64,000 nt of DNA from an uncultured Acidobacteriota bacterium (GTDB taxonomy: Bacteria; Acidobacteriota; Vicinamibacteria; Fen-336): assembly GCA_963720545.1 (NCBI GenBank), contig OY970399.1, positions 1,856,001 to 1,920,000 on the forward strand, given 5' to 3'. The first letter of the stretch is position 1, and every line of letters starts with the position of its first letter. The translations under genes and the position numbers were made by a program. The notes under the pieces were generated by a model. That model was not told the DNA's origin. It was given only the letters and a program-made list of their open reading frames with translations, and did not search any database. Positions 57,741 to 64,000 of the stretch are shown one piece after another.

Positions 57741-57782
57741 AATCGACGGATTGGACGGGGACAGCCAGCCAATCCGTCGATT
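57741..57782. terminator. 14-bp inverted repeat between convergent genes
   Basis: AATCGACGGATTGG ... CCAATCCGTCGATT. Confidence 0.55.
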
Positions 57783-59130
57783 ACTTCTTAGCAGCCTTCT
57801 TTGGCAATGGGTTGAGCATGTAGTCGACGGTGAGGTTGGACAGCAGGCGGACGCCTACTGGCAACGCTTTTTCGTCGGCGTAGAAGAGCGGCGAGTGGTT
57901 GGAGGCGGCCTTGTCCGGGTCGCCCGGCGGGGCGACGCCGAGGGCCACGAACAGGCCCGGCACCTTTTCGGCGAAGTACGAGAAGTCTTCGGCTCCGGTG
58001 ATGGCCTGGCCCACGGCGCTGTGGTCGGGGCCGGTGACGCGGGCGATGGTGGGAACCATCTTCTCGGTGAGGGCCGGGTCGTTGACGGTGACGGGATAGC
58101 CGAGCGTCACGGTGACGTCGGCGGTGGCGCCGGCGCTTTCGGCGATCGACTTCGCGGTGCGCTTCAGCCGCTCGTGGATGTCGGTGCGGACCGCGGCGTC
58201 GAAGGTGCGGAGGGTACCTTCGAGGTAGACGTCGTCCGGGATGATGTTGTTGCGCACGCCGCCCTTGATGATGCCGACCGTCACGATCGAAGGCGTCAAG
58301 GTCACGTCGAGCTGGCGGCTCGCGATCGTCTGCAGGCCCAGCACTATCTGTGAAGCGACCACGATCGGGTCGACGCCCTTCCATGGGGCGGCGCCGTGGG
58401 TCTGGCGGCCCTTCACCAGGATCTTGAAGCTGTCGGCGCTCGCCAGGAAGCCGTTCGGCCGGTAGCGCACTTCGCCCACCGGCAGCGGGAACACGTGCAG
58501 GCCGAAGATCGCATCGGGCACCGGGTTCTCGAGGACGCCCTCCTTGATCATGAGCGCAGCACCGCCTTCCTCGCCATCCGGCGGGCCCTCTTCCGCGGGC
58601 TGGAAGATGAACTTCACGGTGCCGGGCAGCGTCGCCTTCATGCCGGCGAGCACCTCGGCGGTGCCCATCAGGATCGCCACGTGGTTGTCGTGGCCGCAGG
58701 CGTGCATCACGCCCACTTCGGCGCCGTTGTACGTCGTCTTCACCTTCGACGCGAACGGCACGTCCACACGCTCGGTCACCGGCAGCGCATCCATGTCGGC
58801 GCGCAGCGCCACCACGGGGCCTGGCTTGCCGCCCTTGAGCACGCCGACGACGCCGGTCACGCCGACGCCCGTCTTCACTTCGAGCCCCAGTTTCGTCAAG
58901 TGATCGGCCACCAGCTTGGCGGTGCGCGTCTCGCGGTTGCCGAGCTCGGGATGCTCGTGGATGTCGCGGCGCCACGCGACCACCTGCGGTTCGACCGCGG
59001 CGGTGCGCTTGTCGATGTCGGCGTGCATCGCAGCGCCCGCGTCGGGCTTCGCCGCGGCAGCGCCCGCCTGAGTTCCGAACGCTGCGAAGAGCATGAAGAT
59101 GCCGGCGGCCGCGGCCATGTGGATTTTCAT
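57781..59130 (-). CDS. Secreted M20D amidohydrolase / carboxypeptidase
   Basis: HEHPELG, LRADMDALP, MHACGHD, FQPAEEG, AEDFS, NHSP; signal peptide. Confidence 0.92.
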   Translation of the reverse strand: MKIHMAAAAGIFMLFAAFGTQAGAAAAKPDAGAAMHADIDKRTAAVEPQVVAWRRDIHEHPELGNRETRTAKLVADHLTKLGLEVKTGVGVTGVVGVLKGGKPGPVVALRADMDALPVTERVDVPFASKVKTTYNGAEVGVMHACGHDNHVAILMGTAEVLAGMKATLPGTVKFIFQPAEEGPPDGEEGGAALMIKEGVLENPVPDAIFGLHVFPLPVGEVRYRPNGFLASADSFKILVKGRQTHGAAPWKGVDPIVVASQIVLGLQTIASRQLDVTLTPSIVTVGIIKGGVRNNIIPDDVYLEGTLRTFDAAVRTDIHERLKRTAKSIAESAGATADVTVTLGYPVTVNDPALTEKMVPTIARVTGPDHSAVGQAITGAEDFSYFAEKVPGLFVALGVAPPGDPDKAASNHSPLFYADEKALPVGVRLLSNLTVDYMLNPLPKKAAKK

Positions 59131-59160
59131 GGCCGCGACGCTAGCACGCGTGCGCTCCGC

Positions 59161-61332
59161 CTAGAAGCGCACGCCGTAAACGACGCGGAACGACCGGCCC
59201 ATCTCCGGCGCCAGCTCCTTCAGGTATGAAAGATGGTTCCGATAGAGCTCGTCGCCCGCGTTGTCGAGCCGCACGGTGAGGGTATGGGCGGTCGTGCCGC
59301 TGGTGAGCGTGTAGGAGCCGTGGAAGTTCACGACCGTGTAGCCGGCGGTCGGCAGCTCTTCCCCGTAGACGCGGTCCTGGCGTGCGGCGGCGCGGACCTC
59401 GCCCTCGAGGTGCAGCCCCTTCCTTTCGTAGCGCAAGCCGGCCCAGCCGCGGTACGGCGGGATGCGCGGCAGCGCGTCGTCCGTGCTGCGCAACTCGCCG
59501 TGCACGCCGTCGCCGCCAAGTTCCAGCCACAGAGAACCGGTCACAGCCGCGTCCACGTGGGCTTCGAACCCTTGCAGCCGGGCATCGGCCGCGGTGAAGC
59601 GAATCACCGGCAGCTCGTCCTCGATTTCACCGGACTGCAACGGGAAGATGTAGTCGTCGATGTCGTTGCGAAACACCGTGAGTTCGCCGCTGAAACGCGC
59701 TCGGCGCCAGCGCAGGGACAGGTCCGCGCCTCGGCCCACTTCGGTGCCGAGACCGGGATCGCCGATTTCGAACGCGTTGTTGCCCGGGTGCGCACCGACG
59801 TTGTAGAGCTCCTCGAGGCTCGGGTTGCGGGCCGCGCGCGCCAGGCTGAGCGCCAGGGTGACGTCCTCGCGCAGGTACGCAAGGGCCCCGAACGAGCCCG
59901 ATGCGTTGGTGAAGCGCCGCGCCACCACGTTGTCGCGGTCCGGCACGAACGAGGCATCGGGATCGAAGCTGGTGTGGTCGAGGCGCGCGCCGAGCTGCAG
60001 CGTCACATGGCCGAACGGGCGTTCCTCGTAGAAGTACGCAGCTGCCGAGTGCTGCGTCGTCGGCGGCGCCAGCGCCTCCTCCCCGATCGACTCATAGTCG
60101 CGCGTCGCTCCCTGGAAGCCGATCGTGCCCTTGATGCCGGTCGAGCCGAGCGGCGCGTGGTTGAGCGCCACGTTGCCCTCCCAATACTTGTTGAAGAACT
60201 GCGTGCCAACGTCCTCGCCTTCGAACTCGGTGTGCGAGTAGTTGCGGTAGCCCAGCTCCACCTTCACGCCCTCGATGAAAGAGCCGTCGAAGCGGCGCTC
60301 GCCGCGCAGGTCGGCGCGATGGCGACGCGGGTTGAGAGTGATGTTGCCCGACTCGACGTACGGGATGCCGTAGGTGGTGCGGTTGAAGTTGTACGCGGCG
60401 CCGACGAAGCCCTTGTCGTCGGCATAGCCCACCGAGCTGCCGAGCGACACCATGTCGCTCTGGCTGTTGGGCACCTGGCCGATCGGCGTGTCGTAGTCAC
60501 GGGTGCGCCGCGCGCTGCCGCCGCCGCGCAGCGACCAGCCGTTGCGGCCAAATACGGCCGTGCCGCTGCCGCCGGCTTCGCCGTTGCTGCTGCCACCGTC
60601 GAGGTTCAGGTAGCCGTGGGTGCCAGAAATCGGCGCGCGCGGGATCTCGTCGGAGATGACGTTGATGACGCCGCCGATGGCGCTGGCGCCATAGAGCAGC
60701 GTCGCCGGGCCGCGCACCACTTCGATGCGGTTGGCGGCGGCAGGATCGAGGGTGACGCCGTGATCGCCGGACTGGAACGAGAGGTCGCCGGTGCGCACGC
60801 CGTTCTCCAGGATCAACACCCGGTCGCCGTCGAGGCCACGGATCACCGGGCGGGCATTGCCCGCGCCGAAGGAGCGCACGTTGACGCCCGGTTCGGAACC
60901 GAGCGTCGCGCCCAGGGTGGCGCCGAGGCGCTGCTGCAGCTCTTCGCCGCCGAGCACGGCCGCGGGCTGGAAGCTCTCGAAGGTGTCGCGGGCGGTCGGG
61001 CTGACGGTGATCGATTCGGTGACGTGCACCGCCTGCGCCAGCGTGAAGTCGAAGGACGCCGCGAGGTCGGTGCCGACGACGGCCTCGCGCCGCACGGTGG
61101 CGAAGCCGCTGAGCGCCGCGACCAGGTGGTAGCGGCCCGGCGCAATGCCGGCGATGCGGCAGGTGCCGCTGGAGTCGGTGACGCACTCCTTCTTGAGGGC
61201 GGGATCGTCACCGAGGGTGACGGTGGCACCGGCGAGCGGCAGGTCGTCGGCGTCGCGGACCGAGAACGAGGCGTCCGCGGCGGGCAGGAGCGATGCGGCG
61301 AGAAGCAACGACTGGATGGACGAATACAGCAT
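59161..61332 (-). CDS. TonB-dependent receptor, ZnuD-like metal receptor
   Basis: RPVIRGLDGDRV, SGDHGV, IEVVRGPATLLYG..AIGGVINV, YSHTE, ELY..GAH, YRNHLS, C-terminal F. Confidence 0.85.
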   Translation of the reverse strand: MLYSSIQSLLLAASLLPAADASFSVRDADDLPLAGATVTLGDDPALKKECVTDSSGTCRIAGIAPGRYHLVAALSGFATVRREAVVGTDLAASFDFTLAQAVHVTESITVSPTARDTFESFQPAAVLGGEELQQRLGATLGATLGSEPGVNVRSFGAGNARPVIRGLDGDRVLILENGVRTGDLSFQSGDHGVTLDPAAANRIEVVRGPATLLYGASAIGGVINVISDEIPRAPISGTHGYLNLDGGSSNGEAGGSGTAVFGRNGWSLRGGGSARRTRDYDTPIGQVPNSQSDMVSLGSSVGYADDKGFVGAAYNFNRTTYGIPYVESGNITLNPRRHRADLRGERRFDGSFIEGVKVELGYRNYSHTEFEGEDVGTQFFNKYWEGNVALNHAPLGSTGIKGTIGFQGATRDYESIGEEALAPPTTQHSAAAYFYEERPFGHVTLQLGARLDHTSFDPDASFVPDRDNVVARRFTNASGSFGALAYLREDVTLALSLARAARNPSLEELYNVGAHPGNNAFEIGDPGLGTEVGRGADLSLRWRRARFSGELTVFRNDIDDYIFPLQSGEIEDELPVIRFTAADARLQGFEAHVDAAVTGSLWLELGGDGVHGELRSTDDALPRIPPYRGWAGLRYERKGLHLEGEVRAAARQDRVYGEELPTAGYTVVNFHGSYTLTSGTTAHTLTVRLDNAGDELYRNHLSYLKELAPEMGRSFRVVYGVRF

Positions 61333-61337
61333 GGCAA

Positions 61338-61408
61338 CGGACCTCCGGAAAAAAGCCAGAAACGATGAAACGGCGGGACGGGTGGCGTTTCAGGCTGCGG
61401 GAGGTCCG
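61338..61408 (-). promoter_or_regulatory. Predicted anti-SD/SD pairing that sequesters the receptor ribosome-binding site
   Basis: On the minus strand CGGACCTCC (61400-61408, within the R-G-P-P codons) is the exact reverse complement of GGAGGTCCG (61338-61346, SD 9 nt before ATG 61332). Confidence 0.65.
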
Positions 61409-61677
61409 CGGTTCGGCACGGCGGCGCGCGCCGGCGTGCGGGGCGCCGCGGGTTGCGCAAAGGTGACGGCTTCAAATGTGGCTGGTGCGACGACCGCGGG
61501 TGCGGCTGCGACCACGGGTCCGGCGACTACCGACGCCGAGCGGCACGCGAGGCAATGCAGCTCGACGACGCAGCCGTCGTCGGTATGGAAGAAGGACTGG
61601 TCGGCAAGGTTCGTCGCGAAGCCCAGGAGCGCCAGCAGGGCGACGGCGGCGAAACGAACCTTGCGCGACCGCGGCAT
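61390..61677 (-). CDS. Putative metal-sensing leader/arrest peptide (DUF2946/CruR-like architecture)
   Basis: 95 aa: signal/TM N-terminus, H31-x4-C36-x4-H41-C42-x2-C45, Ala/Pro/Val linker, RGPP at residues 90-93; directly upstream of a TonB-dependent receptor. Confidence 0.75.
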   Translation of the reverse strand: MPRSRKVRFAAVALLALLGFATNLADQSFFHTDDGCVVELHCLACRSASVVAGPVVAAAPAVVAPATFEAVTFAQPAAPRTPARAAVPNRGPPAA

Positions 61678-61681
61678 CTGC

Positions 61682-62530
61682 CTAGGCCGTCGTGCCGCGC
61701 CGGATGAGCGGACGGACGAGCGCCATGAGGATGAGGATGAGGCCGAAGGTGCAGACCATGGTGGCGCCGGTCGGCAGATCGAGCTGCACCGACAGGTACA
61801 TGCCGAGCGCCGAGACCACGAAGCCCATGGTCCAGCCGATGGCTAGGCGCTTGCCGATGCCGTCGGCGTACAGCATGGCTGCGACCGACGGCACGATGAG
61901 GTAGCAGAACACCAGCAACACGCCGGCGATCGAGACCGAAGACGTCACGACGAAGCCGAAGGACGCGTAGAACAGGAAATCCCAGAAGCGCACCGACCGC
62001 CCGTTGACCTCGTTCGTGTCGCGCCCGTGGTTCATCGAGATGGCGAGGAACTGGCGGCGGAAGATGTAGTGGAAGAGTCCCACGGCGCCGTAGAGGATGG
62101 CGGTCTTTTCCACCTCCGGCCACGAGACCGCGAGGATGTTGCCCACCAGCATGTCCTTCAGGTGCTCGGCTTCGGACGTGGCGTGGCTCATGGCGAGGAT
62201 CGACGCCGCCGAAGCGACCGCGTACGAGATGCCGATGATCGCCTCCTGCGGGATGCGCGCGCGCGTGGCGCGGATGGTCGAGAAGATGGCGGCGCCGATG
62301 AAGGTGAACGCGAGGCTCACCCAGTAGACCTTCGGGCCATGGGGATCGCCGCCCGAGAACGGCATCAGGATGGCGACCGAGGCGCCGAGCGCGGCGATCT
62401 GCGCCAGCGACAGGTCGACGAAGATGACGCCGCGCTCCACCACGTGCACGCCGAGGTACGCGTGGATGCCGGTGAGGATGAGGCTCGCCGCGAACGGCGC
62501 CGCCAGGAACGACAGGATGGTCATGTCCAA
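61682..62530 (-). CDS. Metal ABC transporter permease (ZnuB/MntB family)
   Basis: GVHVVERGVIFVDLSLAQ, EAIIGI, GNIL, GVLLVFCYLIVP, DLPTGA. Confidence 0.88.
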   Translation of the reverse strand: MDMTILSFLAAPFAASLILTGIHAYLGVHVVERGVIFVDLSLAQIAALGASVAILMPFSGGDPHGPKVYWVSLAFTFIGAAIFSTIRATRARIPQEAIIGISYAVASAASILAMSHATSEAEHLKDMLVGNILAVSWPEVEKTAILYGAVGLFHYIFRRQFLAISMNHGRDTNEVNGRSVRFWDFLFYASFGFVVTSSVSIAGVLLVFCYLIVPSVAAMLYADGIGKRLAIGWTMGFVVSALGMYLSVQLDLPTGATMVCTFGLILILMALVRPLIRRGTTA

Positions 62531-62534
62531 GGGG

Positions 62535-63443
62535 TTACTTAGCTCCCGCGAAGGCGGCCACGAGCTTGGCCGTGATGGCGTCGAACAGCTTGATGTAGTC
62601 GGTGATCTCCTTCTCGGCGCCGACCGACGGCGGCAGCACCACCACGGCCGCGCCGGTCTCGCGCGCCACCGAGTTCGGTGTCTTGAGGTCGAAGTACGGC
62701 TCCACCACCAGCACCTTGACGTTGTCGCGCTTCATCTGCGCGATCAGGTCGATCGTGTGGCTGGGAGAGGGCGGGATGCCGGGCCGCGGCTCGACGTAGC
62801 CGACCACGTTCAGGCCGAAACGGTCGCAGAGGTTCGGCCACGAGCGGTGATACGTGACGATCTTCGCGCCCTTGAGCGGCGCCATCACGGTGTTCCAGCG
62901 CGTCTCGGCGGCCGCCAGCCGCTTGTCGAAGTCGGCGTAGCGGGCGGCGAAGTAGCCGCTGTCGGCGGGGCTGATCGCCGCGAGCTTCGCCTGGATCGCC
63001 TGCGCCATGTGGCGACCGTTGCCCGGGTCGAGCCAGTAGTGCGGGTTGCCGGCAGGATGCACGTCGCCCATGGCGCGGGTCAGCTGTCCTGTGGGAATCT
63101 CGAGGATGCGCACGTTCAGCGAAGCGTCCAGGTAACCGTTGGCTCCCGGCTGCACCTTGGCATTGCGGCTCTGGTTGATGAGCGGCGGCAGCCAGCCGAT
63201 CTCCATCTCGCGGCCCACCGCCACCAGCAGGTCGGCGGCGTGCAGCTTGAGGATGAAGCTCGGCTTGGCTTCGACGAAATGCGGATCCTGGTAGCCGCGG
63301 GCGAGCGCATCGACTTCCACCTTGTCGCCGCCCACCTCGCGGGTGAGCGCCGCGAGATCTTCGGTGGTGGCGACGACCTTGATCGCTGCCTGGGCGGGAA
63401 GCGCCCCGAGCAACGTTGCGAGTAAAGCTGCGGCGAATCGCAT
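62535..63443 (-). CDS. Metal ABC transporter substrate-binding protein (ZnuA/TroA family)
   Basis: Signal peptide, VVATT, QDPHF, GDVHPAGNPHYWLDP, YH, EPRPGIPPS. Confidence 0.9.
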   Translation of the reverse strand: MRFAAALLATLLGALPAQAAIKVVATTEDLAALTREVGGDKVEVDALARGYQDPHFVEAKPSFILKLHAADLLVAVGREMEIGWLPPLINQSRNAKVQPGANGYLDASLNVRILEIPTGQLTRAMGDVHPAGNPHYWLDPGNGRHMAQAIQAKLAAISPADSGYFAARYADFDKRLAAAETRWNTVMAPLKGAKIVTYHRSWPNLCDRFGLNVVGYVEPRPGIPPSPSHTIDLIAQMKRDNVKVLVVEPYFDLKTPNSVARETGAAVVVLPPSVGAEKEITDYIKLFDAITAKLVAAFAGAK

Positions 63444-63452
63444 TGCGTCTCC

Positions 63453-64000
63453 TTAGAAAGGATGAGCGCCGTGGGCGCCGATCGAAAAGAGGAACTGGAA
63501 GAGGAACTCGTTGGCCGTGTTGCCTTCGGCGTAATTGGTGCGGCGCAGCTGGCCGCGGACCTGGCTGAATTCGCTCGGCCAGTAGGTGAGCAGCAGCGAG
63601 CCGCCCTTGTCCTTGAGGTCGCCGTTGCCCGCGCGGCCGGAATAGTCCCAGCGCGCACCGGCGAACCAGCGGCGAGCGAACTGGTACTCGCCGTAGACGT
63701 AGGTGCCGAAGGCGCGCTCGGTGGAGAGCGGATCGCGCAGGCGGCTCCACACCAGCTCGCTGCGGCCGATGACGCGCTTGTAGATCGCGCGCCGCAGCGG
63801 TCGGTAGCGAAGGGTGACGTCGGCGCCGAACAGTCGCGTGGTGCTGTCGGCGCCGCCCTGGTTGTGGCCGTAGGCGAACGAGCCGCCGAGGTCGAGATTC
63901 GTCGATTCGCTGAGGTCGCGGTAGGCGCGCAGCTTGCCGACATAGGTGAGGTCGCCGCGCGTTGGCGCCGCGAAAACCTCGGAGTTGCCGGAGTAGACCT
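63453..64000 (-). CDS. Outer-membrane porin-like protein (C-terminal part only)
   Basis: Frame open to the window edge; amphipathic beta strands; ends FQFLFSIGAHGAHPF. Confidence 0.7.
   Translation of the reverse strand, partial: VYSGNSEVFAAPTRGDLTYVGKLRAYRDLSESTNLDLGGSFAYGHNQGGADSTTRLFGADVTLRYRPLRRAIYKRVIGRSELVWSRLRDPLSTERAFGTYVYGEYQFARRWFAGARWDYSGRAGNGDLKDKGGSLLLTYWPSEFSQVRGQLRRTNYAEGNTANEFLFQFLFSIGAHGAHPF

Follow-up and report, generated by a model that had tools for sequence, protein, structure and literature searches.

A small open reading frame that precedes a zinc-type TonB-dependent receptor gene is, judged from its sequence, predicted folds and analogy with known systems, fairly probably a CruR/DUF2946-like arrest peptide, which would gate receptor translation by SecM-like unmasking of the Shine-Dalgarno (SD) sequence and be released by metal. 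The codons of its predicted arrest motif, RGPP, are complementary over 9 nt to the receptor SD. This match is real, lies well above chance and has a family-level signal behind it. Arrest, ligand and direction of control are suggested by the likeness to CruR and by the importer and gene context; the gene context also indicates that the metal is probably zinc. The window, the whole 64,000-nt stretch of DNA analysed, holds the following features.

61390..61677, minus strand: leader ORF, 95 aa, no Pfam or NCBIfam match; candidate arrest peptide
61399..61410, minus strand: RGPP codons CGC GGA CCT CCC (Arg90-Gly-Pro-Pro), from the sequence
61392-61390, minus strand: stop of the leader, closing the tail GCA GCC TGA that follows RGPP, from the sequence
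61400..61409, minus strand: 5' arm (anti-SD) of a 10-bp helix, from predicted fold and complementarity
61347..61398, minus strand: loop region (tail codons, stop, spacer), from predicted fold
61337..61346, minus strand: 3' arm, SD GGAGG (61346-61342) plus UCCGU, from sequence and predicted fold
59161..61332, minus strand: TonB-dependent receptor, 723 aa, ZnuD-like (Pfam plug and barrel); proposed regulated gene
61682..62530, minus strand: ZnuB/AztB-like ABC-3 permease (Pfam, NCBIfam), directly upstream of the leader
62535..63443, minus strand: ZnuA/AztC-like metal-binding protein (Pfam, NCBIfam)
63453..64000, minus strand: 3' part of the gene for a 445-aa secreted protein without Pfam match, continuing to G000:C1:1920790
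57781..59130, minus strand: M20 amidohydrolase (Pfam), 30 nt behind the receptor

The leader, its paralogue and the gene cluster

The leader starts 4 nt past the stop of the znuB-like gene and is separated from the receptor by 57 nt; the receptor ATG is at 61332 and its GGAGG sits 9 nt 5' of the start. ZnuD (4rdr) is the only PDB match of the receptor at E ≤ 1e-15 (E 7.9e-47), and the top NCBIfam model is ZnuD (NF038289) with 255 bits, far under the cut-off of 950. The nearest three named relatives of the receptor carry the label Vicinamibacteria, phylum Acidobacteriota. The M20 amidohydrolase gene is possibly co-transcribed with the receptor. No ABC ATPase gene adjoins the ZnuA/ZnuB-like pair (61682-63443) in the cluster. 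The 445-aa secreted protein, encoded before the ZnuA-like gene, ends in HGAHPF and is possibly a metal porin. The genome (4.1 Mb) has one Fur-family match (2347956), and two full rho matches plus a third, partial one (G000:C1:2933402, 785932 and 1833367), both full genes scoring above the TIGR00767 cut-off. A scan of 58900-64000 for sigma-70-like promoters found none, and a terminator scan at the leader-receptor junction gave none that was convincing (3 found, 2.4 expected). An Rfam scan of both leader loci returned a single chance-level match (E 0.55), thus pointing to no known riboswitch.

The peptide runs from a basic, hydrophobic N-terminus through HTDDGC..HCxxC (C42, C45) and a further 44 residues to RGPP (90-93), two alanines and the stop. 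Its N-terminus is signal-like, with a basic N-region and a hydrophobic helix that AlphaFold places at residues 2-24 (pLDDT 90-96 over the first 20 residues); the model of the whole leader is of low confidence (pTM 0.28). In an alignment of 16 leaders H and C are invariant, and within the CxxC, here C42-L-A-C45, the first Cys is invariant and the second is present in at least 90%. The CxxC-to-RxPP spacing of 44 recurs in 104 of 146 loci, with 43-45 in 136. Searches against Pfam and NCBIfam gave no match for the leader, and PF11162 was found neither in it nor elsewhere in the genome; three of 16 leader relatives touch PF11162 weakly (best E 0.015). ESM Atlas neighbours were found at 0.96 (unnamed) and 0.94 (DUF2946 on 54% of members). 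The CxxC, the terminal motif and the spacing, which falls within 1-2 residues of the 45 expected for this family, are shared with CruR, but the Pfam cut-off is missed; the leader is therefore described here as CruR-like and not as a formal member of PF11162.

A paralogous RGPP leader (48% identity, E 1e-10) lies ∼0.9-1.2 kb past the window end at G000:C1:1920903-1921184 (minus strand; L032/L043), at the head of the cluster before the 445-aa secreted protein, and one operon holds two predicted arrest leaders. The paralogue encodes its RGPP in common codons (CGC GGC CCG CCC), with small predicted SD masking, and served as an internal control. Just 5' of it lies a sequence judged by eye to be promoter-like, TTGACA-17 nt-TACCTT.

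The helix at the receptor Shine-Dalgarno sequence

The sequence-only reading had claimed a perfect 9-nt pairing of the RGPP codons with the receptor SD, and this is borne out: CGGACCTCC (61408-61400) is the exact reverse complement of GGAGGTCCG (61346-61338) on the minus strand, GGAGGTCCG contains the SD, and one G-U pair lengthens the match to a 10-bp helix. The folding check proposed with that claim also came out in its favour. The helix is present in both the MFE and the centroid structure of a 111-nt segment, and its pair probabilities are 0.94-1.0 across four folding contexts (111-421 nt), the exceptions being the outer two pairs in one of these contexts (0.16 and 0.84). Taken as a whole, the 111-nt segment is no more stable than its shuffles (z −1.35; 23/200). 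A perfect complement of at least 9 nt that covers the SD and lies no more than 110 nt upstream occurs in 4 of the 342 genes of the genome with a GGAGG SD, the present gene included.

Part of the spacer is itself paired in the closed fold, its partners being the tail codons and the stop (AGCC/GGCU and UGAAAC/GUUUCA). The pyrimidine richness noted for this spacer holds (74% over the 43 nt between stop and SD; 17 C, 15 U, 7 G, 4 A), and a U-rich stretch lies directly 5' of the SD. Rut sites are usually ∼70-80 nt long; at 43 nt and partly paired, the spacer is unlikely to be a stand-alone rut site.

GGA and CCT were correctly described as uncommon. Across 1682 long ORFs of the genome, GGA accounts for 5.1% of the codons for Gly and CCT for 4.8% of those for Pro, and GGA-CCT is used for 0.84% of 3216 Gly-Pro pairs. 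When all 384 synonymous codings of RGPP were ranked by closure of the ribosome binding site (RBS), the native one was 58th, or in the top 2% when usage-weighted. RxPP ORFs across the genome were, among the matches listed, mostly shadow frames.

Toeprints of ApdA, ApdP and CruR, as given in the main text of PMC12992588, place Pro3 and Pro4 of RAPP-type motifs in the P and A sites during arrest. By analogy, the ribosome is predicted to stall here when CCT (61404-61402) occupies the P site and CCC the A site, and would thus sit on the 5' arm. The predicted cost of opening the receptor RBS, computed over −16..+4 of the start, is 14.2 kcal/mol for the free RNA and 14.4 kcal/mol with a ribosome parked upstream, and falls to 7.1 kcal/mol when the RGPP footprint is masked. 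For the RBS controlled by the paralogue, the corresponding values are 9.6, 9.2 and 7.3 kcal/mol. For ordinary genes (n = 51) the opening cost has its median at 10.6 and its lower quartile at 9.1; since 10 of these 51 attain 14.2, the closed cost is not exceptional. Among 146 homologous loci, the predicted saving from masking exceeds 2 kcal/mol in 79 (31 of 52 clusters), stays under 1 kcal/mol in 51 and is at least 7.2 in 21. The stall-and-unmask logic proposed from the sequence is supported by the lower masked cost and by the pairing of homologues with their cognate SD inside the footprint, described below.

Pairing and codon choice in homologous leaders

A total of 183 homologous loci in 87 clusters, from Acidobacteriota, Gemmatimonadota and metagenomes, were compared in four sets. 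For set Q, a profile of 16 leaders matched 118 of 401 genomes of the class, and 163 loci gave 143 leaders with R[AGS]PP (7 matches were without the motif). Dropping long tails, missing downstream genes and one duplicate left 138 leaders, and 112 leaders with a clear SD and a gap of 30-230 nt fall into 33 clusters at 35% identity. Set T comprised 80 loci chosen by their receptor, 47 with a leader; 34 new ones passed the filter, 31 of which (20 clusters) are unlinked to Q. Set GM came from 29 receptor loci in the phylum of G675 (labelled Gemmatimonadota), 20 having RxPP leaders and 9 passing the filter. Set MG, a stand-in for a Pseudomonadota genome set, was drawn from metagenomes with the pattern CxxC-45 codon-RxPP-xx-TGA, third positions free; of 119 matches, an open frame was present in 53 and a downstream gene in 40, and 28 (26 clusters) passed the filter, some of them probably false. 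A script chose the start codons in the sets, so that some are bound to be incorrect, and clustering leaves kin partly non-independent. Searching 301 genomes of the phylum for PF11162 gave 29 weak loci, which were kept out of all statistics.

A TonB plug was found in 19 of 31 scanned cluster-representative downstream genes, and 7 of the 31 scanned leader-controlled genes have no Pfam match. In some Vicinamibacterales-related genomes there are 2-4 leaders of this type, and two of them often lie within 1.5 kb of sequence (L093, L102, L107, L127, L139, L140 and others). A receptor orthologue in G014 (L004) is preceded by a different His/Cys-rich leader in place of the RGPP leader; it ends in LAPKNSPP and has CCT CCG ahead of a GGAGGAG SD. 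A very close orthologue in G015 (L002; 60% identity) has no leader, and the gene upstream of it is presumably LytTR-like.

In the covariation test, leader windows were set against the SD regions of their own and of other loci, with one locus per cluster. Set Q (11 windows, 2 partner controls) gave z −2.7 for −3..+15 and z −3.1 for +6..+24, five upstream windows and both controls being flat. The +6..+24 window was picked after inspection of Q; for own versus swapped SD it gave z −2.8 in T (20 clusters), −6.5 in MG (26) and −2.3 in GM (9). The −3..+15 window replicates only in GM (z −2.65; T −0.67, MG −1.38), and two upstream control windows were also low (−21 in T, z −2.4; −57 in GM, z −2.1). 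Over the 87 clusters, SD pairing from +6 to +23, counted from the Arg codon, was 0.16-0.26, compared with 0.07-0.10 for swapped SDs. It declines past +24, and native exceeds swapped in 61 of 87 clusters (p 5e-7). Helices of at least 8 bp fall in the footprint in 19 of 87 clusters, against 6-8 in four other windows. Of 52 clusters, 49% have anti-SD 5-mers in the RxPP codons and the one that follows; synonymous resampling gives 9%, and three upstream windows gave 9-12% (4-9% expected). The 3' edge of the ribosome lies ∼15-17 nt beyond the P site; with Pro1 in the P site, the covered stretch would end near +23, in keeping with the pairing profile.

These results bear unevenly on what had been read from the single sequence. 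That the RGPP codons themselves are the conserved anti-SD is not supported, as the signal peaks at +6 to +23 and −3..+15 is weak in T and MG; as a family rule it was rejected on the negative results for fixed-register covariation and for CCU-SD association. Homologues show cognate-specific pairing within the footprint, but the exact register of the present locus (GGA CCU CC with GGAGG UCC) shows no covariation in 27 clusters with CCU and GAGG (p 0.27). Only a minority of homologues fold as this locus does: among 138 leaders, the main partner of the SD is the motif in 36 and later or intergenic sequence in 41. The present helix is shifted towards the 5' side and unusually perfect for a family in which the anti-SD floats over the Pro-Pro codons, the tail and the stop. 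Taken together, the register, CCU-SD, fold and masking results show that the anti-SD floats in the footprint without being universal, and that something besides pairing may contribute to the CCU bias.

Codon choice at the motif gave a mixed answer to the idea that the codons were selected for pairing. In favour of it, CCT encodes Pro1 in 36% of the 138 leaders, compared with 9% of other leader Pro codons (15% before C) and 7% in downstream genes; by cluster the share is 52% in Q, 38% in T, 44% in GM and 31% in MG (background 5-15%). Against it, CCU at Pro1 shows no association with a GAGG SD (0.60 versus 0.57), and CCA, which cannot pair with GGAGG, is enriched in T and MG (26% and 37% by cluster; Q 5%, GM 11%). 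This CCA enrichment, unexplained by SD pairing, may be a codon effect on arrest. Codon 2 of the motif is enriched for GCA, GCT and GGA in the 138 leaders, GGA making up 28% of Gly (background 12%) and GCT 30% of Ala (5-7%); Pro2 is CCC in 72%. In all sets, Pro1 shuns CCC and moves to CCU and CCA, and Pro2 favours CCC.

The proposed switch and its relation to known systems

In the switch that we propose, scarcity of the metal would let the ribosome arrest on RGPP, covering the 5' arm and the arm formed by tail and stop, and the SD and the U-rich stretch would be open so that receptor is made. When available, the metal (probably zinc) would bind the His/Cys site 44 residues upstream of RGPP, which by then would have just emerged from the exit tunnel; folding or export would then pull on the metal-bound chain, the ribosome would complete the last two codons and leave, the helix would close and initiation on the receptor would stop. 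Once untranslated, the receptor mRNA may in turn be subject to Rho polarity. The U-rich 3' half of the spacer could equally help the small subunit to load.

Rho could instead have the leading role, as in a CruR-type attenuation in which the stalled ribosome keeps Rho off a loading site, release brings termination before the receptor and the SD helix is secondary or incidental. The Rho mechanism is demonstrated for CruR-bfrG, and bfrG too encodes a TonB receptor (PMC9426467). The two rho genes above the TIGR00767 cut-off, the excess of C (44-49%) over G (27-31%) in the 3' half of the leader and the pyrimidine-rich spacer are also what it would call for. However, the C-over-G skew is equally strong at the znuB end and at the receptor start, the intergenic region is much shorter than the 162 nt of CruR, closure of the helix leaves the spacer partly paired, and Rho alone leaves the cognate-specific SD pairing unexplained. 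We therefore consider this attenuation unlikely as the main mechanism, and note that it can act together with SD masking.

Less probable again is that the rare codons are selected for slow decoding at the arrest site or for keeping the region G-poor, the 9-nt match being a by-product of the likeness between Pro-Pro codons (CCN CCN) and the 16S tail. In its favour, Pro1 in T and MG is enriched for both CCA and CCU, GCA, GCT and GGA are all favoured at codon 2, and both the CCU-GAGG association and fixed-register covariation are missing; but the preference of tail and stop codons for their own SD in four sets would then be unexplained, as would the UCCG extension at this locus, a match of this kind being found in 4 of 342 genes. 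Least probable is a SecM-like secretion monitor, in which Sec pulling and not metal frees the arrest and receptor synthesis is tied to export capacity. Its signal-like N-terminus and the same class of stall motif would suit this role, whereas the conserved His and Cys at a fixed distance (44 in 104 of 146 loci) do not, and downstream genes are transport genes (TonB plug in 19 of 31), none of them annotated sec or yidC. Metal-released unmasking of the SD thus remains the reading that we prefer.

In the literature, the leader fits the RAPP/RGPP class whose members precede TonB-receptor and metal genes (Fujiwara et al., EMBO J 2025, PMC12992588), matching the class description in being small and putatively secretory, with RxPP near the C-terminus (here RGPP and two residues before the stop) and a TonB or metal gene behind it. 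According to the main text of that paper, arrest was most stable with RGPP in several of the contexts, CruR arrest at RAPP was shown in vitro (Fig. EV5) and the regulatory mechanism of these leaders is a named open question; the terms Shine-Dalgarno, stem-loop, synonymous and zinc are all absent from it. For ApcA, ApdA and ApdP, no SD-sequestering hairpins were found (PMC7897499).

CruR itself (Bp2923, DUF2946/PF11162), upstream of bfrG in Bordetella pertussis and Rho-dependent in the account of PMC9426467, is likewise a small uORF, its product exported, with a CxxC ∼45 residues before a RAPP-like C-terminal motif, located before a TonB-dependent metal importer, where metal is predicted to free the arrest and shut uptake. 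CruR senses copper at the head of a copper-homeostasis operon and has RAPP in frequent codons and a 162-bp intergenic region, whereas the present leader encodes RGPP with rare codons, is followed by an intergenic region of 57 nt and a predicted SD-masking helix, has no match in Pfam, and lies inside a zinc-type cluster with a second leader at the head. CutF-cutO of Rhodobacter capsulatus is also DUF2946-like, and there stalling melts an SD-shielding stem-loop (bioRxiv 10.1101/2022.11.11.516240; also 10.1101/2025.02.05.636593 and PMC8456105). CutF has a CxxxC, a PPP motif, copper-induced stalling, a detoxifying oxidase as target and a stem-loop described as intergenic (40 bp), in contrast to the CxxC, RGPP and TonB receptor here and to a 5' arm made of the arrest codons. 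This comparison is with the CutF main text, and its supplementary anti-SD figure may bear on how close the two are. A CutF-type SD-shielding stem-loop within reach of the stalled ribosome is present here by prediction and comparison; with an importer as target, metal would be expected to end the stall, where in CutF copper induces it.

SecM-secA, MifM, VemP and uDF_RQH also have a stalled ribosome breaking an SD-sequestering helix, but these substrates monitor Sec or YidC, have no metal site and regulate translocation genes (PMC10987492, PMC7897499). Pfam and downstream-gene scans did not mark the leader as a monitoring substrate of the SecM/MifM kind. In E. coli secM, CAACGCCUC, right behind the RAGP codons, is by eye complementary, with one bulge, to GGGGCGUUUG before secA; the predicted MFE has another fold.

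RxPP leaders before TonB receptors, stall-driven SD unmasking (SecM, CutF) and Rho control (CruR) are already published, the switch logic included, while a literature search of open main texts found no report of arrest-motif codons acting as an anti-SD or of a zinc-sensing RAPP leader. What we would add, tentatively, is that CxxC-RxPP leaders of several phyla share an anti-SD in the Pro-Pro, tail and stop codons under the arrested ribosome, and that it serves here as a protein-based zinc switch, used twice in one operon of a genome that has a single Fur-family gene. RAPP/RGPP leaders are common upstream of metal-uptake genes, and for a sizeable share of them the comparison offers a testable answer, an anti-SD in the arrest site and the next few codons. 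Since mutating the motif alters RNA pairing as well as the peptide, synonymous changes are needed as controls for arrest mutants. Should zinc be the ligand, metal sensing by arrest peptides would reach beyond the copper cases described in the published texts consulted.
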